Origin: Asterionella formosa
Lineage: Eukaryota
DNA length: 38,255 bases
Reading direction: 5' to 3'
Assembly (NCBI GenBank): GCA_002256025.1
Contig: NKIB01015105.1
Coordinates: 1 to 38,255, forward strand
In this document: positions 1-38,255 of the stretch, one piece after another
How positions within the stretch are numbered: the stretch's first letter is position 1
How the letters are laid out: each line of letters opens with the position of its first letter
Made by a program: the position numbers and the translations under genes
Notes under the pieces: model-generated
Database searches by the model: none
Told to the model about the DNA's origin: nothing
Seen by the model: only the letters and a program-made list of their open reading frames with translations

Positions 1-455
1 AATTTCATTTTTTAAACAGTAAACAATATATATTTCAAAGAATAATGAAATTATATTTTTTAGATGGTCTTGAATCTGTACGACACTAAAATACCAACAA
101 CAAATTTTATTTTTTTATACTTTTTTTTATATTTTTATATTTTTAAGATTTTGAAAAACCCTAAAACACTCATTTTGACGACCTAAAAAACTACGGTGTT
201 TACCTACGATAATACCGTGATATTTAGACTGGTACTTTTAACCAAAAAAACAAAAAAATAATTTTTACCCAAAATAAACTACCATGTTTACGTACGGTAA
301 CACCGTCGTATTTGAAGGGTATTTTTGCAATCCCTAGTACCACTCAGGATCGAATATTTTGAATTGAACTTTAAAAACAAAATTACCTTTTTTTAACGGG
401 TTTGAGTTTGTATGGCGGTAAAATACATTTCATTTTTTAAATGGTCTTGAATTTT
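1..455 (+). repeat. Control-region tandem repeat: end of one ~430-bp unit (1-144) and a diverged, partly deleted copy (145-455)
   Basis: 1-~140 matches 38046-~38185; 145-425 is near-identical to 37757-38036. Confidence 0.9.
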
Positions 456-660
456 TTTTATAGGATGATACAAATAATGAGTACCATTTTTTAAGTATAA
501 TTACAAAAAAACTATAGAAACTTAAACAAATAAAATTTCTTTTGATAATTAACAATCAATTATTTTTTAGATAGCTACCACTCTGCTCTTTACAGCAAAA
601 ATACGGTAAACTGAAACAAATAAACTCTCTTTACACAATCCTTTTCTGATAAAATTAAAC

Positions 661-5061: not shown

Positions 5062-5287
5062 TATTTTTTGAAAAAAAAAACTCTTTTCTAGTAAACGAAA
5101 ATTCACCAAACTTAAAACCTACCATTTCTTCTAACACAATAATTTTTATATTGGATTTACCATTATGAGTATAGTAAATCTTCCCAACAAAACTTGGCAT
5201 AATTTCAGAATTTCTTAAGCCTATATTTTTATAATTATTTACTTTTTGATTTTTAAAGTAAGGACCCTTCCAATTTGCTCTTGCCAT
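5045..5287 (-). CDS. rps19: Ribosomal protein S19
   Basis: MARANWKGPY, HNGK, MVGFKFGEFSFTRK. Confidence 0.97.
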   Translation of the reverse strand: MARANWKGPYFKNQKVNNYKNIGLRNSEIMPSFVGKIYYTHNGKSNIKIIVLEEMVGFKFGEFSFTRKEFFFSKNNGTKS

Positions 5288-6653: not shown

Positions 6654-6738
6654 GAAGAAATTTCCGAGCGGTTAAAGGAGACAGATTGTAAATCTGTTAA
6701 GATTTTTCTTTTCGTAGGTTCGAATCCTACTTTCTTTA
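6654..6738 (+). tRNA. trnY: tRNA-Tyr(GUA)
   Basis: ACAGA-TTGTAAA-TCTGT anticodon arm, long variable arm. Confidence 0.95.
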
Positions 6739-6745
6739 AAAATTT

Positions 6746-6819
6746 CGAAATATAACGCAGTCTGGTAGCGTGCCTGATTTGGGATCAGGAAGTCATATGT
6801 TCAAATCATATTATTTCGA
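6746..6819 (+). tRNA. trnP: tRNA-Pro(UGG)
   Basis: CCTGA-TTTGGGA-TCAGG anticodon arm. Confidence 0.95.
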
Positions 6820-7280
6820 AAAAATAATGTTTGAATTGAAAATTCTAGCTTTTTTTTTAAAAAGCTATAAAATATAATCATTGTTAGATCATACTTTATG
6901 AATTCAACTTTATTAATTTGATTTATAAAATAAAATGTTTTATTTAATTTAATGCCAATAAAAGTTAAAATGCTATTTAGTTTCAAAAAATAGGAAGAAA
7001 ATAGTTTAGGTAGAACTTTAAAAATAACAAAAATAAGAGGACTATTAATTAAAGTTTTAAATTTTTTATAAATCGATTGATTAAAAACCTTTTTTGTAAT
7101 TTTATTATGAAATTTATAATGTTTTAAATTAAAATTTTTCAATAATTTTTCAACAGTAAACCAAATTTTAGAACTAGAATCACTAATATAATACAAGAAC
7201 AAAAATTCATTTTTTTTCAATTGCTTTTTAACTTTTAAGAATGTATAATATTTTAATGTAAATTTCGTAAAACTAACCAT
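6801..7280 (-). CDS. rpl10: 159-aa basic ORF, probable divergent ribosomal protein L10
   Basis: Size and position between trnP and trnI(CAU) match the conserved diatom ORF; weak L10-like pattern (FHNKITKKVF..KTLINSP); stop overlaps trnP antisense. Confidence 0.55.
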   Translation of the reverse strand: MVSFTKFTLKYYTFLKVKKQLKKNEFLFLYYISDSSSKIWFTVEKLLKNFNLKHYKFHNKITKKVFNQSIYKKFKTLINSPLIFVIFKVLPKLFSSYFLKLNSILTFIGIKLNKTFYFINQINKVEFIKYDLTMIIFYSFLKKKLEFSIQTLFFRNNMI

Positions 7281-7364: not shown

Positions 7365-7375
7365 TCACAATTAAA

Positions 7376-7516
7376 ATGAGAAATATAAGCATAACTCAAT
7401 TATTAATCCTATTTTTTACAATAAGTTTATTTTTTGTTGATTTAAAATCTTTTAAAAATAATATATTAAATTATTACAAACAATTCAATAAAAAAAACAG
7501 GAAAAAAGGGATTTGA
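7376..7516 (+). CDS. tatA: Twin-arginine translocase subunit TatA-like, 46 aa (not in ORF track)
   Basis: MRNISITQLLILFFTISLFFVDLKSFKNNILNYYKQFNKKNRKKGI*: short N-terminal TM helix plus basic amphipathic helix, upstream of tatC on the same strand. Confidence 0.7.
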   Translation: MRNISITQLLILFFTISLFFVDLKSFKNNILNYYKQFNKKNRKKGI

Positions 7517-8277: not shown

Positions 8278-9248
8278 TTCGATAACCAGTTAGACCCAAT
8301 CAAAATCCCAACTGCAAAAATAAGATAACCTAAAGAAAAAGGTAAAAAACATTTCCAACCAATACCCATAAGTTGGTCATACCTGTAACGAGGCAAACCT
8401 GCTCTAGTTATAATAAAAAATGTAACCCCTAAAGCTACCTTAAAACTAAACCAAAAACTCCCAGGAAAAAAATTAAATAATGGAAGCCAACCTCCTAAAA
8501 ATAAATTTGCAGAAAAAGCTGACATTAATAACATATTTGAATATTCACCTAAAAAAAATAGTGCAAATGTCATGGAAGAATATTCCACGTTATAACCTGA
8601 AACTAACTCTGCCTCTGCCTCTGGTAAATCAAAAGGATGACGATTCGTTTCAGCTAACATTGAAATACAAAAAATTATAAAAATAGGTGAAGATGGTAAC
8701 ACGTACCAACAATACCTTTGAGCTATAATTATATCAGTTAAATTAAACGAACCCGCAAATAAACATAAATTAACAACAACAAAACCAATAGAAACTTCAT
8801 AAGAAATCATTTGAGCAGTAGAGCGTAAAGCCCCTAAAAACGGGTACTTAGAATTACTGGACCAACCTGCTATAATAACACCATAAACGCTTAAAGCCGA
8901 AATTGCAAGTAAATACAGAACCCCAACATTTAAATCAGTAAAAACTATCGAATCAAAAAATGGTATAACTGCCCAACCAATCAAACTTAAAAAAAAAGTT
9001 AAAATGGGTGCAATAATAAAAACAAAAGAATTACAATTACTTGGCAATATAGTTTCTTTTGTAAATAATTTAAGTCCATCAGCAAAAGGTTGTAATAAAC
9101 CAAGCATTCCAATCACATTAGGACCTTTTCGACGTTGGATAATACCCATCCCTTTTCGCTCCACAATTGTAAAAAAAGCAACGGAAATCAATAAAGGAAT
9201 TAAAATAATCAAAATTTTAAATACAAATAATAGAATAAAAATTACCAT
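8274..9248 (-). CDS. nad1: NADH dehydrogenase subunit 1
   Basis: [34 protein letters not shown]. Confidence 0.99.
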
Positions 9249-9529: not shown

Positions 9530-10072
9530 TTATATTAAAAAAGGTTGTTTAAAAGAATTAATTAAATAAAAAAACTCTTTTTGATTTGTTTTAGAGCTAA
9601 CAATTGTCAAATTTAAATTTATCAAATTTTTATTAAATAAATTATAATTATCCTCTAACTCTGCAAATAATAATTTATTGTTTAATTTATAAGAAATAGT
9701 AGAATAGTAATTTTTTCTAGTTTGGTTTTTTTGTAAACGTACTTTAAATTTATAAAATATTTCAAAAATTAGTTTAATGAAAAAATTATACATTAAGTTT
9801 TTTCGTAAAATAACCTGACAACCAATTGGATCCCCTTTTTTTATTTTAAAAAAAAGATTTGCCTTTTTTGAAATCAAAAATTTCCCTTTTTTGGAAGTAA
9901 CTAATTCTAAAGCTAAATTTGCAGTACATAATTCTTTAATACTTGACTTTTTAAAACCAAAATCTACAATAATTTTACGTATTTTAGGGATTTTTTTTAG
10001 TTTACAATAAACAAATTTATTAACTAAATCAAACTTAATAACATTGTTATAATAACTTTCAAAGAAACTCAT
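9530..10072 (-). CDS. rpl5: Ribosomal protein L5
   Basis: IPKIRKIIV, FKIKKGDPIGCQVILRK; ATG at 10072. Confidence 0.93.
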   Translation of the reverse strand: MSFFESYYNNVIKFDLVNKFVYCKLKKIPKIRKIIVDFGFKKSSIKELCTANLALELVTSKKGKFLISKKANLFFKIKKGDPIGCQVILRKNLMYNFFIKLIFEIFYKFKVRLQKNQTRKNYYSTISYKLNNKLLFAELEDNYNLFNKNLINLNLTIVSSKTNQKEFFYLINSFKQPFLI

Positions 10073-10080
10073 TAAAAAAT

Positions 10081-10461
10081 TTAAATAAGTCCAGCAGAGA
10101 TAGTTACGAATTTTAAATATTTCCCACATTTTAATAATCTTGAAACAGGACCAATTATTCTACTTGCTACTGGACTATTTTGCTTATTAATTAAACTCAC
10201 ACAATTATCATTAAAAAATGTGATTAACCCATCTTTTTTTTTAATTTGTTTTTTTGTTCTAATAATTAATCCTTTAAAAACCTCACCTTTTTTTACTTTG
10301 GATAAAATTTTAGACTTATTCCTTAACTGTTGAATCGAAACAACAATTAAATCACCTGGACAAGCAAACTTTCGTTTAAAACCACCTAAAACTTTAATAC
10401 ATTTTGCTGTTTTAGCACCAGAATTATCACTAACTTTTAAAATTGTTTGTAATTGAACCAT
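10081..10461 (-). CDS. rpl14: Ribosomal protein L14
   Basis: LKVSDNSGAK, SRIIGPV. Confidence 0.98.
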   Translation of the reverse strand: MVQLQTILKVSDNSGAKTAKCIKVLGGFKRKFACPGDLIVVSIQQLRNKSKILSKVKKGEVFKGLIIRTKKQIKKKDGLITFFNDNCVSLINKQNSPVASRIIGPVSRLLKCGKYLKFVTISAGLI

Positions 10462-16898: not shown

Positions 16899-17135
16899 TA
16901 AAAAAGGGTAATTTCGTTTAATTTGTTTCTAAGAAAGCTGTTGCAAGAATACTCTCTAAATACAGCTATATTATCCTACGAAAACATAGCAGCTATTTTG
17001 GGTAAAAACTAGTTTTTCGTTTTTTGGTCAAAAATATCCCTTCTAATAATTGCGATGTTATCATATCTAAACAATGACAGCTTTTTTAGGAAGTCAAATT
17101 GTGTATTTTAGGGCTTTTCAAAATCTTGAAAATAG
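16899..17135 (-). repeat. Diverged inverted copy of the control-region repeat unit
   Basis: Reverse complement is colinear with 37752-~38005, e.g. ACCAAAAAACGAAAAA(C/A)TAGTTTTTACCCAAAATA. Confidence 0.88.
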
Positions 17136-17193
17136 TTTTTTTAAAATTTATGAAATTTTATTGCAAAACTATCAAATATTCATTCAAAGTATT

Positions 17194-18595: not shown

Positions 18596-19417
18596 TTAAT
18601 CTAATAATTTATTAACAATGTAAAAATGAAACTGAGCTGTAGGCAACGAAACAATTGCGATTGGCATAAAACCATGATTTACACCACAAATTTCGCTACA
18701 TTGCCCGAAGAAAACCCCAACCCGCTTGATAAACAAATTTACTTGATTTAACCTACCCGGACATGCATCAATTTTTAAACCAAATGACGGAACAGCCCAG
18801 CTATGCAAAACATCCGCAGAAGATACTAAAAGTCTTAAATGAGTGTTTACAGGTAAAACAACTCGTTTATTCGTTTCTAGTAAACGAAAATAACCTAACT
18901 TTGGTTTTGGAAGACCTTCTAAAACAAGCATATACGAAACATACTTTAAACTCTGTTGAGAATTAGAACAAGATGTAAAATCTGAAATTTCATAACTCCA
19001 AAACCATTGATGCCCTAAAATTTTTAAAGATAACTCTGGTTCAGAGATTTCATCCATCGCATATAATAAAGTAAATGATGGAGTTGCTAAAACAAGTAAA
19101 ATTAAAGCAGGAATAGTAGTCCAAACAATTTCCAACTCCTTCGAATGAACAAATTTAGTTTGTAATGAATTATCAATTTCTAAAAATTGTGATATTATAT
19201 TTAATAAGACCCAACCAACAAAAACTACAATTAATAATAACAAAAATAATAAATGCTGATTAAATAATAAGATTCCCTCCATTGAAATACTACCAGGCTC
19301 ATTTAATTTAAATTGACTACCCATAGGCACATCATTTAAATAATAAAAAAAAATTAAAACCAAACCCGAGAAATTTAAAAATATTCTATTTAAACTTAAA
19401 TGTAACCCAAACAGCAC
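18596..19417 (-). CDS. cox2: Cytochrome c oxidase subunit 2; GTG start probable (first ATG ~19324)
   Basis: DVLHSWAVP, CuA motif [14 protein letters not shown]. Confidence 0.97.
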
Positions 19418-19501: not shown

Positions 19502-19600
19502 TACTATAATTGATACGATTGATTACTTGAAAAACTGCCCTACACAAAAAAAAGATCAAAACTCTCTATTTTAAGCTCATTACTTCCAACTTTTGAAGTC

Positions 19601-21637
19601 TCATATTTTAAAAAATTTAATAAAGAACAATGAAATAAAAAAAATACTAAAAATCTCATCGTCTGAAAAACTGTAAAAAATATCTAAAATCGAATTAATT
19701 GACTCTAACAAAACAATATGCTCAAAAATTAATATTAAACTAATAATGACTAAAAATATAAAAGTATAATGATACAAATAACCTGACTGTAATTTTTGTA
19801 AATCCGAACCTGTTTTTGATATTATATAATTTAAACCGTAAGGTCCCATTACTTCAAAAATTCCTCGATCGACTAATTTGTAACTTGTGGAATAACCAAA
19901 AATAAAAACGTATTGTGAAATAAACTCTTGGTATAATTTGTCAAAAAACAATTTTTTATTTAAAAAATTGTAAGCTTTTAAGCCAAATGAATTTTTTTTT
20001 AACAAAAAAAGAAATTTCGAATTATTAATATAAAAAAAAAACGCCAAAAAAATACCAAAAAAACTCATTTGAACTGGAAAAATTTTGACTTCATTATCTA
20101 TAAGCTCAGCATCAAAAAAATTCATGTTTTCCGGTTTTATAAAAATAGCATTACCCCAAAAATCACTACCAAGCCCTACAAAAATTTCTTTAATAAAAAA
20201 TCCAATGAATAAGCTAGGGAAAGCTAAAAAAAAAAGTGTAAGACAAATTTTATAGGAAGAATCATAAGCAAAAATGATTACAGACTTATTCCCATTAGGC
20301 TTAGATATAAAAGTTAAGTAAATTAGTCGTGTAGAATAAAATGATGTCAAAAATGCACCAATAGATCCTAAATAATAACTAAAATGACTAATTGAAGTAT
20401 ACTTAACATAAGCAACCTCTAAAATTAAATCCTTTGAATAAAATCCTGCCAAAAAAGGGAAACCTACTAATGCTAAAGAACCAACAACCATCATAGAATA
20501 AGTAAAAGGTATTAATTGTTTTAAACCACCCATTTTTCTAATGTCTTGTTCATCGGACACTGAATGAATAACAGACCCAGCACCCAAAAAAAGTAAAGCT
20601 TTAAAGAATGCATGGTTTGCTAAATGAAAGATACCTACAGAATAATTTGAAAGCCCACATGCAAAAATCATATAACCTAACTGACTACAGGTTGAATAAG
20701 CGATAACCTTTTTTAAATCATTTTGAACTAAACCTATGCTAGCAGCAAAAAAAGCGGTAATAGATCCTATAAAAGCGATAATTTCTAATAAACTACCTAC
20801 AAATTCAAAAATAGGAGAGGATCTTGAAATTAAAAAAACCCCTGCGGTTACCATAGTAGCTGCATGAATTAAAGCCGATACAGGAGTTGGAGCTTCCATA
20901 GCATCTGGTAACCAAGTATGCAAACCTAATTGGGCTGACTTACCCACTGCCCCAATAAATAAAAAAATACCTATAACAAATAAAACACTGTAATTAATAT
21001 TGAAAATTAAAATAGTTTTGGTAACAAAAAATGGGACTAAAGCAAAAACAATAGCATAATCTACAGACTTAAAGGTAAGAAAAACCACTAAAATACCAAG
21101 AACAATCCCAAAATCCCCTATTCGATTTAAAATCATAGCTTTTATTGCAGCCTTATTAGCTTGAACCCTCGAAAACCAAAAATTTATAAGTAAATAGGAA
21201 CATAAACCTACACCCTCCCAACCCACAAACATTTGAACAAAATTGTCTGCTGTAACCAAAACTAGCATAAAAAAAGTAAAAAACGATAAATAAGACATAA
21301 ACCGAGATAAATGAGGATCTTGCGCCATGTATTCAATAGAGTAGAAATGAACTAAAGTAGAAACAAAAGTAATAATACAACACAAAGTAATACTTAAACT
21401 ATCAAATAAAAAACCCCAATCAACATTTAATGTACCACATTCAAACCAGCCAATTAATTTAAAATAAACAGAACAATTTAGAAAACCAACTTCACAAAAC
21501 CCAACAAAAGAAAATAAAAAAGATAAAAAAGTACACATTGTTGTTATTATAGACGAGCCATAAAACCCTAAATATCTACCAAATAACCCAGCACTGCAAA
21601 ACCCGAAAAATGGTAATAAAATTATAAGCAAATACAT
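19601..21637 (-). CDS. nad5: NADH dehydrogenase subunit 5
   Basis: GKSAQLGLHTWLPDAME, HAFFKALLF; TGA stop. Confidence 0.99.
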   Translation of the reverse strand: MYLLIILLPFFGFCSAGLFGRYLGFYGSSIITTMCTFLSFLFSFVGFCEVGFLNCSVYFKLIGWFECGTLNVDWGFLFDSLSITLCCIITFVSTLVHFYSIEYMAQDPHLSRFMSYLSFFTFFMLVLVTADNFVQMFVGWEGVGLCSYLLINFWFSRVQANKAAIKAMILNRIGDFGIVLGILVVFLTFKSVDYAIVFALVPFFVTKTILIFNINYSVLFVIGIFLFIGAVGKSAQLGLHTWLPDAMEAPTPVSALIHAATMVTAGVFLISRSSPIFEFVGSLLEIIAFIGSITAFFAASIGLVQNDLKKVIAYSTCSQLGYMIFACGLSNYSVGIFHLANHAFFKALLFLGAGSVIHSVSDEQDIRKMGGLKQLIPFTYSMMVVGSLALVGFPFLAGFYSKDLILEVAYVKYTSISHFSYYLGSIGAFLTSFYSTRLIYLTFISKPNGNKSVIIFAYDSSYKICLTLFFLAFPSLFIGFFIKEIFVGLGSDFWGNAIFIKPENMNFFDAELIDNEVKIFPVQMSFFGIFLAFFFYINNSKFLFLLKKNSFGLKAYNFLNKKLFFDKLYQEFISQYVFIFGYSTSYKLVDRGIFEVMGPYGLNYIISKTGSDLQKLQSGYLYHYTFIFLVIISLILIFEHIVLLESINSILDIFYSFSDDEIFSIFFISLFFIKFFKI

Positions 21638-21651
21638 ATTAAAATGTTACA

Positions 21652-21996
21652 TCACTTCTTTTTAGCAGATTTTGCATTAGTTCGAGTTCGTTGACCTCTT
21701 ACAGGAAGACCTTTCTTTAATCGAAAACCTTTTTTAGATTTAATATATGATAATCTTTTTAATAAAAAAACCCTAAAACTAGATAACTCACTAGTAACTT
21801 CAAAATTTAAAGTATGTATTAATTTTACGATCTGTATAATCTCATCATCTAAAAGATTTTTTAGTTTAAGTTTTTTGGAAAACCCTAATTTTTGGCAAAT
21901 TAATAACGCTCTTTTAAGTCCGATTCCCTGAACATCACTTAAAACAAAAAAAATAGGCTGTATATCCCTTACATCAGTATCCAATATGAATACCAT
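21652..21996 (-). CDS. rps13: Ribosomal protein S13
   Basis: GLPVRGQRTRTNA. Confidence 0.97.
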   Translation of the reverse strand: MVFILDTDVRDIQPIFFVLSDVQGIGLKRALLICQKLGFSKKLKLKNLLDDEIIQIVKLIHTLNFEVTSELSSFRVFLLKRLSYIKSKKGFRLKKGLPVRGQRTRTNAKSAKKK

Positions 21997-25937: not shown

Positions 25938-26096
25938 AATAATTAAACACCCCTACCTATAAATTATCAGCTGAAAACGTAATTCTGCTTTAAAACTGTT
26001 CGATTTCTGTTCTAGACTACAAAAAACTACCTTAATATTTAGATAAAAAAAACACTAATAATTTCTCTAATTTAAGTTGTCAATAAATATAAAACT

Positions 26097-26788: not shown

Positions 26789-26861
26789 TAATGAAAGCAG
26801 GACTTAAACCTGCGGCATTTGGATTATGACCCCAACGTTCTATCTACTGAACTATTCCATT
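26789..26861 (-). tRNA. trnM: tRNA-Met(CAU), atypical
   Basis: All four stems pair; loop GTCATAA; T-loop TTTAAGT; no D-loop GG. Confidence 0.8.
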
Positions 26862-28412
26862 TTTCCAGCTACACGTTCCCGTAAAGCTACCTTGTTACGA
26901 CTTCATACAAATTATTAACCGTTCAATGGATTTACTAAAAATAAATCTTCGAGTAAAATTAATTTTTCGCATGTGACGGGCGGTGTGTACAAGGCCAATA
27001 TACGTATTCACCGCAACAATCTAATTTGCGATTACTAGTGATTCCAACTTCATGTAAGCGAGTTGCAGCCTACAATTCGAACTAAGGAAATTTTTAAGAA
27101 TTAATACAAACTTTTAATTTTAATATTATTTTGTAATTTCCATTGTAGCACGTGTGTAGCCCAACTCATTAGGGCCACATAGACTTGACTTGATTCTCTC
27201 CTTCCTCTGATTTGTCACCAGCAGTTTTTTTAAAAGATTTAAACTTTATTCAAAGAAAGAAAGGTTTGTTTATATTAAAAATAAGAGTTACGTTCGTTAA
27301 AGGAATTAACCAAACATCTCACGACACGAACTGACGACAGCCGTGCAGCACCTGTAAAATTTGTTTCTTTTATACTTTAATCAAGTATATTATTTCAAAA
27401 TTTTATGTCAAGAGTTGGTAAGGTTTTCGTGGATTATCGAATTAAACCACATGCTCCACCACTAGTTTTAGGCCCCCGTCAATTCCTTTGAGTTCCAATC
27501 TTGCGATTATACTCCTCAGACGGAATGCTTATTGCGTTAGCTTAAAAATCTAATAATTAATTAAAAATTCAAAAATAAATAAAAATTTAAATTACAGCAT
27601 TCATAATTTACGGTATAGACTACCAGGGTATCTAATCCTGTTTGCTACCTATACTTTCGTTTCTCAGCGTCAGTTTTTACTAAAGAACCGCTTTCGCTTG
27701 ATGGTATTCCTTTATATATCTTCAAGTTTTACCTTTTCATATAAAATTCTACTCTTTTGTAAAAAACTCAAGTGAAGAAGTATTATAAGCCGATTTAAAG
27801 TTAAGCTTTAAAGTTTAACAAATAACTTTCATCACAACCTACAAACTCTTTACGCCCAATTATTTCGAGTAACGCTTGCCCCTCCCGTTTTACCGCGGCT
27901 GCTGGCACGAGATTAGCCGGGACTAAAACTTCTTTAAATAATGTCATTATCATTTTTAACGAAAAAAGTTTACAACCAATTTAGCCGTCTTCAATTAGAT
28001 AGTATTGCTGGATCAAACTTCCGTCCATTGTCCAATATTCCTTACTGCTGGCCAATTAAATTAGCCTGGACCTTATCTCAATTCCAGTGTGATTGATCAT
28101 TCTCTAAAATCAACTAAAGATCACGGGCTTGGTCAACTATTAATCGACCAACTACCTAATCTTTAACAAAACCATTTTTTAGCAGCTATAAAATAGAGTT
28201 ATAGCCTTTTTAAATATTTAAAAATTAACATAAATTTTAATTTGTTTCAATTTAATGAATATGTATTATTTTAAACTAAAAAGTAGATTTTTGTGTTTTA
28301 CTCACCCGTTCGCTACGGATCTTGCGAAACTTCGGAAACTCCGTTAAACTTGCATGTATAAAGCATACTACTAGCGTTAACTCTGAGCCAGGATCAAACT
28401 CATGTTATAAAA
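26862..28412 (-). rRNA. rns: Mitochondrial SSU rRNA (ends approximate)
   Basis: GAGTTTGATCCTGGCTCAG, GTGCCAGCAGCCGCGGTAA, GTACACACCGCCCGTC, AAGTCGTAACAAGGT on the minus strand. Confidence 0.98.
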
Positions 28413-31359: not shown

Positions 31360-32007
<648 letters not shown>

Positions 32008-32189
32008 TTAGAAATATACCCTGCCCTCCGAACCGTACATGATAGTTTCCCATCATACAGCTCTCTAGCAAACAAAAATTTCTCATATTTAATTTTTTCT
32101 TTTTTTATTATTTAAATTTAAGTATCTTACTTTATTTTTAACTTTTCATAGCTGAAACCTTTTTCTACAAAAAAGTTATTATTTATATC

Positions 32190-32351: not shown

Positions 32352-36562
<4,211 letters not shown>

Positions 36563-36566
36563 GGTT

Positions 36567-36626
36567 TAAAGAGTTTTGGAATTGAACCAAAATTTGTATA
36601 TGTTTTACCAATTAAACTAACTCTTT
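36567..36626 (-). ncRNA. tRNA-like element lacking the anticodon arm
   Basis: AAAGAGT-TA-GTTT AATTGGTA AAAC-ATATACAAAT-TTTGG TTCAATT CCAAA-ACTCTTT-A. Confidence 0.8.
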
Positions 36627-36629
36627 TAA

Positions 36630-36734
36630 AAAAATTTCAATTTAAAATAATTTTTACATAATTCCCAAAACTTAGTATTTATCAAAATATTTTAAAAATC
36701 ACTTGAGTTCTTTATGGATTCAGGAATCAATTTT
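36630..36734 (-). rRNA. rrn5: Candidate divergent, possibly permuted, mitochondrial 5S rRNA
   Basis: CCTGAATCCATAAAGAACTCAAGTGA resembles 5S helix III/loop C; TACTAAGTTTTGGGAA resembles the loop E arm; ~105-nt slot between two tRNA folds. Confidence 0.55.
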
Positions 36735-36806
36735 AAAGTAATAACAGATTTGAACCGTTAACATTTTCGTTGTAAGCGAAACACTCTACCATTGAGTTAA
36801 TTACTT
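36735..36806 (-). tRNA. trnV: tRNA-Val(UAC)
   Basis: TTTCG-CTTACAA-CGAAA anticodon arm. Confidence 0.94.
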
Positions 36807-36809
36807 AAA

Positions 36810-37226
36810 TTAAACTTTTTTCCAACATAAACCACCAACATACCAAACATAAATAAAACCAATACCCAATTCAAATACAAAATCAATCATAGACCAAAAA
36901 CCTAAAGAATTTAATTTAACCAAACAAATACTCCAAGGTAAAAGAAACATTGTTTCAACGTCAAAAACCACGAATAAAATAGCGATTAAATAAAATTTAA
37001 CGTCAAATTGATGTCTTGCGTCTTCATATGGCTCAAACCCACACTCATAAGATGATAGTTTTTCAGTTTCAGGATTTTGAATGACCAATAAAAAAGAAAA
37101 ATTAATTATTATAAGAGATAATAATAAAGCAACTACCAAATATATAACTATAGTAATATAATTTAATCGCAATAATGATTCGACGTTATTAAAAAAAACA
37201 GTAGTTTCAAACAGGTTTTGTAACAT
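36810..37226 (-). CDS. nad3: NADH dehydrogenase subunit 3
   Basis: EKLSSYECGFEP, FYLIAILFVVFDVE. Confidence 0.98.
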   Translation of the reverse strand: MLQNLFETTVFFNNVESLLRLNYITIVIYLVVALLLSLIIINFSFLLVIQNPETEKLSSYECGFEPYEDARHQFDVKFYLIAILFVVFDVETMFLLPWSICLVKLNSLGFWSMIDFVFELGIGFIYVWYVGGLCWKKV

Positions 37227-37493: not shown

Positions 37494-37547
37494 TTGTAAT
37501 ATCTAAATCGATCAACCCGCTCACTACTTAAATTTTATCTTTTTTAT

Positions 37548-37719
37548 AAATTATTTAAAAAAGAAGATCCACTACTAAAATCAAAATTATCAAAAGAAAT
37601 CAAATTCGTTTAGGGTTTGCCTTTTTTTAAGATTTTAAAAATTATTTAAAGAAAAAAATCCACTACTAAAATCAAAATTATCAAAAGAAATCAAATTCGT
37701 TTAGGGTTTGCCTTTTTTT
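37548..37719 (+). repeat. 91-bp tandem duplication (about 2 copies)
   Basis: ATCCACTACTAAAATCAAAATTATCAAAAGAAATCAAATTCGTTTAGGGTTTGCCTTTTTTT at 37567 and 37658. Confidence 0.95.
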
Positions 37720-38255
37720 CATATTTTTATACTTTTTTTTATATTTTCATATTTTTAAGATTTTGAAAAACCCTAAAACACTCATTTTGACGCCCTAAAA
37801 AACTACCATGTTTACGTAGGATAACACCGTGTTATTTAGACTGGTATTTTTAACCAAAAAACGAAAAAATAGTTTTTACCCAAAATAAACTACCATGTTT
37901 ACGTACGGTAACACCGTCGTATTTGAAGGGTATTTTTGCAATCCCTAGTACCACTCAGGATTGAATATTTTGAATTGAACTTTAAAAACGAAATTACCTT
38001 TTTTTAACGGGTTTGAATTTGTACAGCGGTAAAATACCAACAACAAATTTCATTTTTTAAACAGTAAACAATATATATTTCAAAGAATAATGAAATTATA
38101 TTTTTTAGATGGTCTTGAATCTGTACGACACTAAAATACCAACAACAAATTTTATTTTTTTATACTTTTTTTATATTTTTATATTTTTTTTCATATTTTT
38201 ATACTTTTTTTTATATTTTTATACTTTTTTTATATTTTTATACTTTTTTTTATAT
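37720..38255 (+). repeat. Control-region ~430-bp repeat unit flanked by T-rich 20-21-nt minisatellite
   Basis: Matches 1-425; ends in repeated ATATTTTTATACTTTTTTTT. Confidence 0.9.

Follow-up and report, generated by a model that had tools for sequence, protein, structure and literature searches.

The gene for mitochondrial 5S rRNA (rrn5) was scored as missing in 52 of 68 (PMC8987724) and in 28 of 34 (PMC8024477, Table 3) diatom mitochondrial genomes, and where these studies discuss the counts, they do so in terms of gene loss. The question raised by the present locus is whether a short spacer between trnV and cob in the mitochondrial DNA of Asterionella formosa is such a gene in a form that is difficult to recognize. 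The original prediction, made from the letters of the DNA, was that a divergent and possibly circularly permuted 5S rRNA gene is hidden there. The window, that is, the whole stretch of DNA analyzed, comprised 38,255 nt of contig NKIB01015105.1. We concluded that the spacer (36627..36734, minus strand) is probably the gene for a functional, reduced mitochondrial RNA derived from 5S rRNA.

The window is a nearly complete, compact mitochondrial genome with 24 tRNA genes, rnl, rns and the usual respiratory and ribosomal protein genes; nad11 is unsplit and rpl5 is encoded, and rps11 was not among the open reading frames scanned in the window. The cox1 gene is interrupted by a group II intron (window 31992..32065 and 32352..35330, minus strand), whose domain V scored 64.9 bits with Rfam and whose maturase-type reading frame is in frame with exon 1, giving a 992-aa open reading frame with COX1 and Intron_maturas2 domains. 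One TGA has to be read as Trp (table 4) in each of nad5, rps13 and orf202 (19580..21637, 21622..21996 and 6672..7280, minus strand), and none in most of the other genes. The median length of the unassigned gaps is 12 nt, and the candidate spacer is one of the 11 gaps out of 50 that reach at least 40 nt.

On the minus strand, the genes follow in the order nad3, trnV, the 108-nt spacer, a tRNA-like element and cob, which starts at 36562, 4 nt after the end of the tRNA-like element. The spacer is intergenic, lies on the strand of its neighbors and consists of 82% A+T. The features were as follows:

9530..10129, minus strand: rpl5, encoding uL5, a protein that binds 5S rRNA in the central protuberance; Pfam Ribosomal_L5_C with 28.3 bits, against a cut-off of 27.8.
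36735..36806, minus strand: trnV(uac); ARAGORN, and Rfam tRNA with 65.6 bits.
36627..36734, minus strand: candidate rrn5 (5S-like RNA gene), whose product would measure 108 nt with cuts at the tRNA-type structures on either side; Rfam mtPerm-5S, covariance model R1 and an independent sequence pattern.
36699..36725, minus strand: beta-domain hairpin; mtPerm-5S model positions 30-56 and the five-sequence pair table.
36684..36698, minus strand: linker, homologous to the 3' side of loop B, the 3' strand of helix II and the 5' strand of helix V in canonical relatives.
36654..36683, minus strand: gamma-domain core; mtPerm-5S model positions 74-99 and helix IV covariation.
36641..36653, minus strand: proposed 3' partner strand (AAA, U, UAUUUUAAA), which would close the gamma arm; duplex test.
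36627..36640, minus strand: A+U-rich 3' tail up to the tRNA-like element, with no assigned structure.
36567..36626, minus strand: 60-nt tRNA-like element that lacks the anticodon and has acceptor, D and T arms; 47.9 bits with the Rfam tRNA model, whose 13 anticodon-arm positions are deleted in the alignment; uncalled by ARAGORN.

The beta hairpin comprises a 2-bp extension of helix III (UC/GA), a bulged C, helix III (UGA/UCA), a 13-nt loop C ending in GAAC and a 3-nt bulge. The gamma core comprises a loop E-like internal loop (GAUAAAUA / GAAUUAUGUAA), helix IV (CUAA/UUGG) and loop D (GUU). The four strings on which the original prediction was built were all found at their places on the minus strand within 36641..36724: the loop-C arm at 36724..36699, the loop-E-like segment at 36678..36662, and two 9-nt arms at 36696..36688 and 36649..36641, which are indeed perfect complements.

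A covariance search with Infernal-type models, including a permuted one, had been suggested for this locus, and its outcome was mixed. The stramenopile family mtPerm-5S (RF02547) matched at 36652..36738 and was the only rRNA-type match in the spacer, but its 18.2 bits (E = 1, Rfam search of 451 nt) lay below the cut-off of 39. Rescaled to one family and the whole window by our own arithmetic, the E-value would be about 0.02. The alignment spans model positions 26-100 with high posterior probability. Both functional arms by which mitochondrial 5S rRNA (rrn5, Rfam clan CL00113) is recognized were well covered, namely the beta domain, with helix III closed by the conserved loop C (…GAAC UCA…), and the gamma domain, with helix V, loop E, helix IV and loop D and the conserved AUAC…GGGAA (model positions 69-100). 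Helix I of the alpha domain, which joins the 5' and 3' ends, is absent (model positions 2-15 deleted), the 5' hairpin of the model is deleted, and its helix II is mostly deleted or unpaired. The standard models fail here for want of helix I and the 5' half of helix II; when the whole window was searched with 4227 families, no 5S family matched at E<=10, and none reached the gathering thresholds. According to Table 2 of Valach et al. (2014; PMC4267664), many accepted stramenopile 5S loci score below the threshold as well.

Relatives of the element were sought in 80 mitochondrial-type metagenome loci fetched with the cob protein (best 73% identical), and motif scans plus nhmmer revealed related elements in four of them. 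The first, L080, is a related metagenomic contig with a cob 72% identical and a similar gene order. Its element (555-651) lies between trnE and trnS(gct), upstream of nad3 and away from cob, and scored 16.4 bits with mtPerm-5S in a search of equal size; both diatom-type elements, those of the window and L080, are thus near nad3. In L098, the element (18897-18994) is found immediately 3' of rnl and matched the full mtPerm-5S model with 37.6 bits (E 0.0077), so that this locus fits the brown-algal type. The element of L108 is located immediately before rnl and downstream of atp6, and that of L089 immediately after rns; for these two, Rfam listed no 5S-family match at E<=10. The arrangements rns-rrn5 and atp6-rrn5-like-rnl are recorded in Table S1 of Valach et al. 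(2014; PMC4267664), which indicated that the elements of L098, L108 and L089 occupy expected rrn5 sites.

A 10-nt string, UUAAGAUUUU, flanks the element of L098 on both sides (18983-18974 and 18889-18880, minus strand); the 5' copy lies within helix II and loop B, and 6 bp could form between the 3' copy and the same strand of helix II. It may be a leftover of the type of duplication that yields a permuted gene, or a chance repeat in A+T-rich DNA. A distant mitochondrial-type contig (L148, cob 54% identical) carries a conventional-looking loop C motif at 5209-5231 (minus strand), followed downstream by a loop E-like segment and then a tRNA. Profiles of five and of two sequences found no 5S-like element in 36 unassigned gaps of L078, L079, L081, L082, L090 and L109, in parts that do not include nad3. 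The search of viral_contigs with cob returned 77 loci (full-length proteins at most 59% identical, two partial ones 65-67%), none of which contained the element, and the search of the same collection with nad3 returned no relatives.

Two tools were derived from L089, L098 and L108 only, so that the window had no part in them. The first was the sequence pattern TRAAWCC N3-7 AGAACTYA N18-28 TARATACT, which had a single match in the window, at 36674..36722, and no match in 100 dinucleotide shuffles; the analytic expectation was 1.6e-5 matches per window. Among 161 loci, the pattern matched its three source loci only. For a related 22-base pattern, the 596 billion bases of genome_contigs contained three matches, each in a bacterial (MAG) contig, and a similar 21-base pattern matched four viral loci (two distinct), all in coding-looking DNA; both results were considered background. 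The second tool was a covariance model, R1, run on the window with filters off and with a rough E calibration. Its top-ranking match in the window was the spacer (23.8 bits, E 0.014, 36666..36756), with the runner-up at 15.3 bits (E 1.2). The alignment skipped the gamma arm of the spacer, and part of its score was due to a helix II extending 6 nt into trnV. Across the 80 loci, R1 produced 11 matches at E<=10, comprising the three seeds, L080 (E 6.7) and seven judged to be decoys by alignment or low score; the element of L080 received 17.8 bits and a decoy 17.3.

Other searches were negative. The spacer was not among the 10 window matches of a sequence-only nhmmer profile built from the three non-diatom elements, which found the element of L080 at E 1.1 only, and blastn-short with the spacer returned A+T-rich noise only. 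Folding energies of the five RNAs, compared with shuffled sequences, gave no signal (z -0.61 to +0.13), and the minimum-energy fold of the window's element differs from that of 5S rRNA. The largest unassigned stretches of the window (16899..17193, 25938..26096, 7365..7497, 1..660 and 37494..38255) yielded no RNA family or 5S-like match in the Rfam and R1 searches. No better candidate than the spacer emerged within the window in the Rfam (E<=10) and R1 searches.

The resemblance might be fortuitous, i.e., produced by chance in an A+T-rich spacer or in a leader or processing spacer of cob. The 82% A+T, the unremarkable folding energy, the Rfam score below threshold and the negative nhmmer search would be expected of such a spacer. 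However, the pattern should have matched by chance only 1.6e-5 times per window, the spacer ranked first with a covariance model built independently of it, and the element of L080 is not beside cob. We consider that the spacer is very unlikely to be anything other than 5S-derived, and this explanation is close to refuted. The hidden, divergent mitochondrial 5S rRNA of the original prediction was thus supported by the mtPerm-5S match, the pattern match and the rank with R1.

Base pairs were tabulated by script from segments anchored on motifs shared by the window, L080, L098, L108 and L089. The informative pairs were as follows:

Helix III extension, pair 1: U-A in the window; A-U in L080, L098, L108 and L089.
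Helix III extension, pair 2: C-G in the window, L098, L108 and L089; U-A in L080.
Helix III, middle pair: G-C in the window, L080, L098 and L089; A-U in L108.
Helix IV, pair 3: A-U in the window; U-A in L080; G-C in L098 and L108; not paired in L089.
Helix IV, pair 4: A-U in the window; U-A in L080; U-G in L098 and L108; not paired in L089.

Double (compensatory) changes were observed in four pairs, i.e., both pairs of the helix III extension, pair 2 of helix III and pair 3 of helix IV. Helix III and its extension are fully paired in all five sequences, helix IV has at least four pairs in four of the five, and no broken pair was present in the table, with helix IV of L089 reduced to two pairs. 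All five share a helix IV that starts with C-G and U-G, a loop C of 13-14 nt with GAAC at its end, and a linker of 17-18 nt that leads from the beta hairpin to the UAAAUA of loop E. The homology of sequence and the covariation are thus direct observations. Three MAFFT alignments (A1, A2 and A4) were not used for the pair counts, because they misplaced the beta arm or the GGGA of L098 and L108.

The remaining part of the molecule was different. It had been noted in the prediction that too little room is left after trnV for the 5' strands of a conventional helix I plus helix II, and this is plainly the case: the discriminator of trnV and the first base pair of the helix III arm are only 9 nt apart, and just 3 nt precede this arm in L080. 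In L098, L108 and L089, the linker pairs upstream to form a canonical helix II (duplex p 0.0075, 0.035 and 0.007 against shuffled flanks), whereas the upstream duplex was no better than chance in the window (p 0.41) and L080 (p 0.51).

Instead, the linkers of the latter two sequences can pair with downstream sequence. In the window, segments 36696..36688 and 36686..36684 pair with the 3' part of the spacer in 9 bp, a U-U mismatch and 3 bp (downstream-flank duplex -5.6 kcal/mol, p 0.10). The 9-bp helix proposed in the prediction, taken alone, is hence not beyond chance in A+U-rich sequence. In L080, the corresponding pairing consists of 4 bp, a G-G mismatch and 8 bp (p 0.022), and it is present in the minimum-energy fold. 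Both helices have 13 layers, to be compared with the 10 of helix II plus 4 of helix V in the canonical L098. In L089, the 3' strand of helix II (8427-8440) can pair either upstream (7 bp) or with a segment 3 nt past helix V (6 bp; downstream p 0.0055).

The suggestion of circular permutation was therefore divided by these results. A permutation of the brown-algal type did not stand, since the stable 5' hairpin that should lie upstream of an intact helix II is deleted in the mtPerm-5S alignment, and six of the eight helix II pairs are deleted or non-canonical. A permutation opened in loop B received moderate support from the two downstream helices of L080 and the window. In such a topology, loop A would be closed, helix I deleted and the chain opened in loop B, and the 3' partner strand (36641..36653) is proposed to stand in for the 5' strand of helix II and the 3' strand of helix V. 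This pairing was deduced from two A+U-rich sequences, those of the window and L080, and we put its prospects at even or slightly worse. Alternatively, the two arms may be hairpins independent of each other, or a helix II of the conventional type may form by borrowing 6 nt from trnV.

The latter corresponds to a conventional 5S rRNA overlapping trnV, in which helix II (8-10 bp between loops A and B) would be formed by the last 6 nt of trnV and AAAA with 36695..36686, and the RNA would arise only from unprocessed or alternatively processed precursors. This is just how R1 aligned the site, with a 10-bp helix II containing one C-A mismatch, and overlaps of rrn5 with upstream genes by 2-6 nt are recorded by Valach et al. 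(2014; PMC4267664), with one diatom among the cases. However, the borrowed duplex is the one that did no better than shuffled flanks (p 0.41), while the 3' alternative reached p 0.10 in the window and 0.022 in L080. In L080, the model deleted the 5' strand of helix II entirely, and the upstream duplex was again at chance level. Moreover, no precursor could supply the tRNA and the 5S RNA both in complete form; each would have to yield one or the other. An overlap of this kind was considered unlikely.

It could also be argued that the spacer is a decaying relic, derived from rrn5 but no longer functional and heading toward the loss seen in most diatom mitochondrial genomes. The disappearance of helix I and of the 5' strand of helix II, the weak covariance scores, the absence of the element from the searched parts of six relatives and the frequent scoring of rrn5 as missing in diatoms (52/68 in PMC8987724 and 28/34 in PMC8024477) would all be consistent with decay. 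On the other hand, the motifs of loop C and loop E are identical letter for letter in the window, L080 and distant ochrophytes, and the helices change by compensatory pairs. The element has also outlived a relocation between two gene contexts with tRNA-type cut sites kept on both sides; useless DNA tends not to persist in a genome with a median intergenic gap of 12 nt; and rpl5 is kept. A relic was judged improbable, if slightly less so than an overlap with trnV.

We prefer the explanation that the spacer encodes a functional RNA reduced from 5S rRNA. In the proposed mechanism, two functional arms would have been kept, i.e., the beta hairpin with helix III and the 13-nt loop C, which is the part bound by the uL5 encoded in this genome, and the gamma arm, made up of helix IV with its loop D and the loop E-like internal loop. 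What would have been lost is helix I, together with the 5' strand of a conventional helix II. The former 3' strand of helix II would pair with the RNA's own 3' part, so that one continuous helix of about 13 layers would replace the coaxial stack of helices II and V, and the molecule would be a circular permutation opened in loop B. According to PMC2952862, 5S rRNA has a coaxial stack of helices II and V, its loop C and helix III are bound by L5, and its loop E touches H38. Given this arrangement, one continuous helix could keep both arms in their usual relation. The RNA would presumably act in the ribosome.

The ends of the RNA would be provided by its neighbors. The 5S-like RNA is probably released from a long minus-strand precursor by tRNA punctuation: the 3' cut of trnV would create its 5' end, the 5' cut of the tRNA-like element its 3' end, and the 3' cut of the latter the 5' end of the cob mRNA. 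The tRNA-like element shows the features of a t-element, since its acceptor stem and T arm are kept, a decoding anticodon arm is absent and it is positioned at a transcript boundary; its cleavage is predicted from its shape.

Elements of a similar kind were found upstream of cob in other loci. L109 has a full cloverleaf with the anticodon UUA directly upstream of cob (9898-9971; ARAGORN 'tRNA-Stop', Rfam 47.7 bits). In L078 (about 9865-9925) and L079 (about 1082-1150), shorter acceptor/T-arm elements were recognized by eye only, and at the L078 site Rfam listed no tRNA match. These elements follow rps13 or cox1, and no 5S-like element was found in the gaps adjoining them in the three loci. Conversely, cob of L080 has no such element, and the 5S-like element there lies between two ordinary tRNAs. 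The original prediction had combined trnV, rrn5, the tRNA mimic and cob into a self-contained excision cassette that explains why the mimic is retained; this was not supported: mimics precede cob without a 5S element beside them in L078, L079 and L109, and L080 has the 5S element without a mimic. The mimic is accordingly tied to the 5' end of cob rather than to the 5S element. In the window, it likely just also supplies the 3' cut for the 5S-like RNA. Taken together, the elements of the window, L109, L078 and L079 look as if a tRNA gene were decaying to become a signal for cob mRNA processing.

Assembled contigs of four metatranscriptome runs (X1-X4, of 20) were compared with the locus; the RNA runs containing the stretch were freshwater, lake or estuary metatranscriptomes. 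A 1026-nt contig of X1 covers 36319..37100 with no differences and joins cob, the spacer, trnV and nad3. A 455-nt contig of X2 covers 36339..36793 with one difference and joins cob, the spacer and trnV. These two contigs record the presence of the stretch in RNA libraries of two studies; a mature RNA, with its ends, strand and level, is beyond what they show, and carry-over of DNA may have occurred. The sole difference in X2 is a C for T (plus strand) at 36734, the first spacer base after trnV; an adjoining X2 contig has four differences over 294 nt (36764..37057, mostly nad3). The contigs of X3 are interrupted between 36632 and 36780 and those of X4 between 36554 and 36823, which leaves the spacer uncovered; the stops do not coincide, and nothing is inferred from them.

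These results have several consequences. A recognizable 5S-derived gene can sit unnoticed in a spacer flanked by tRNAs, and the motif, together with the second example in L080, allows other diatom genomes to be re-screened. The neighboring tRNA mimic is now read as belonging to cob. If the permuted fold is true, it would be a second and different permutation of 5S rRNA beside the brown-algal one. The fold would then also provide a natural experiment on the parts of 5S rRNA that the central protuberance needs, namely loop C with helix III and loop E with helix IV, arranged along a straight axis of helices II and V. More generally, but with somewhat less confidence than in a reduced 5S gene as such, and at rather below even chances, we propose that some diatoms use a two-armed, permuted 5S rRNA opened in loop B and lacking helix I, in which a continuous helix about 13 layers long substitutes for the three-way junction and both ends are cut by tRNA-processing enzymes. 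In that case, many of the rrn5 losses reported for diatoms would be detection failures, and the central protuberance of the diatom mitoribosome would contain a 5S topology unseen in any solved ribosome.

t-Elements are tRNA-like processing signals of plant mitochondria and are also found upstream of the 5S rRNA in Haloferax. The mimic resembles them in that it keeps the acceptor, D and T arms, i.e., the parts recognized by RNase P and RNase Z, and lies between two transcription products. It differs in being downstream of the 5S-like RNA and in being linked to the 5' end of cob in relatives, with its cleavage predicted.

As stated in the original prediction, divergent and permuted mitochondrial 5S rRNAs occur in stramenopiles; they are published and widespread there (Valach, Burger, Gray and Lang, 2014; PMC4267664), and the present locus is best regarded as a variant of this already known divergent type. 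The literature search does not establish this locus or its fold as unpublished. Mitochondrial counterparts of the bacterial proteins that bind 5S rRNA, L25 being named, are suggested as proxies for a hidden 5S by Valach et al. (2014; PMC4267664). The element agrees with the mtPerm-5S type as described in that paper in its conserved beta and gamma domains, its A+T-rich and intergenic character, its location on the strand of its neighbors, its below-threshold scores and the lack of a conventional helix I joining the ends. In contrast to the brown-algal molecules, which keep helix II and have a 5' hairpin in place of helix I, the 9 nt after trnV can accommodate neither. The site of the permutation differs as well, being between the alpha and gamma domains in brown algae and, as proposed here, in loop B in the diatom.

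The diatom sites in Table S1 of Valach et al. (2014; PMC4267664) are rns-rrn5-like-trnM in five raphid pennates or endosymbionts, rns-rrn5-nad6 in Phaeodactylum, cox3-rrn5-trnH in Ulnaria and trnK-rrn5-atp6 in Thalassiosira pseudonana. None of these sites is free in the window, because rns abuts trnM and cox1 abuts trnH. The Rfam SSU match (26853..28409) and trnM (26789..26861) even overlap by 9 nt (26853..26861), so that the slot used by the raphid pennates is absent. The published diatom loci were recognized from the same kind of evidence, a weak covariance-model match plus comparison, and the T. pseudonana candidate also follows a tRNA gene (PMC4267664). The alpha domains of the published diatom elements were called 'conventional' or '5' permuted' (PMC4267664); our distinction was drawn from the tables of that work rather than its structure drawings, where a similar fold may possibly be depicted.

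A comparable reduction is known from Polytomella magna (Tobiasson, Berzina and Amunts, 2022; PMC9576764), whose mitochondrial 5S rRNA, as described there, likewise has no alpha domain at all and a conserved gamma domain. That RNA is validated by structure and also lacks helices II and III, whereas helix III is kept in the diatom element, along with a loop C that is well conserved. Compared with bacterial 5S rRNA (RF00001), the diatom element would lack the three-way junction and helix I, and its ends would lie in loop B. It nevertheless resembles the bacterial molecule in the sequence of loop C and helix III and in the layout of loop E and helix IV, and the helix II-V axis would be mimicked by one long helix.
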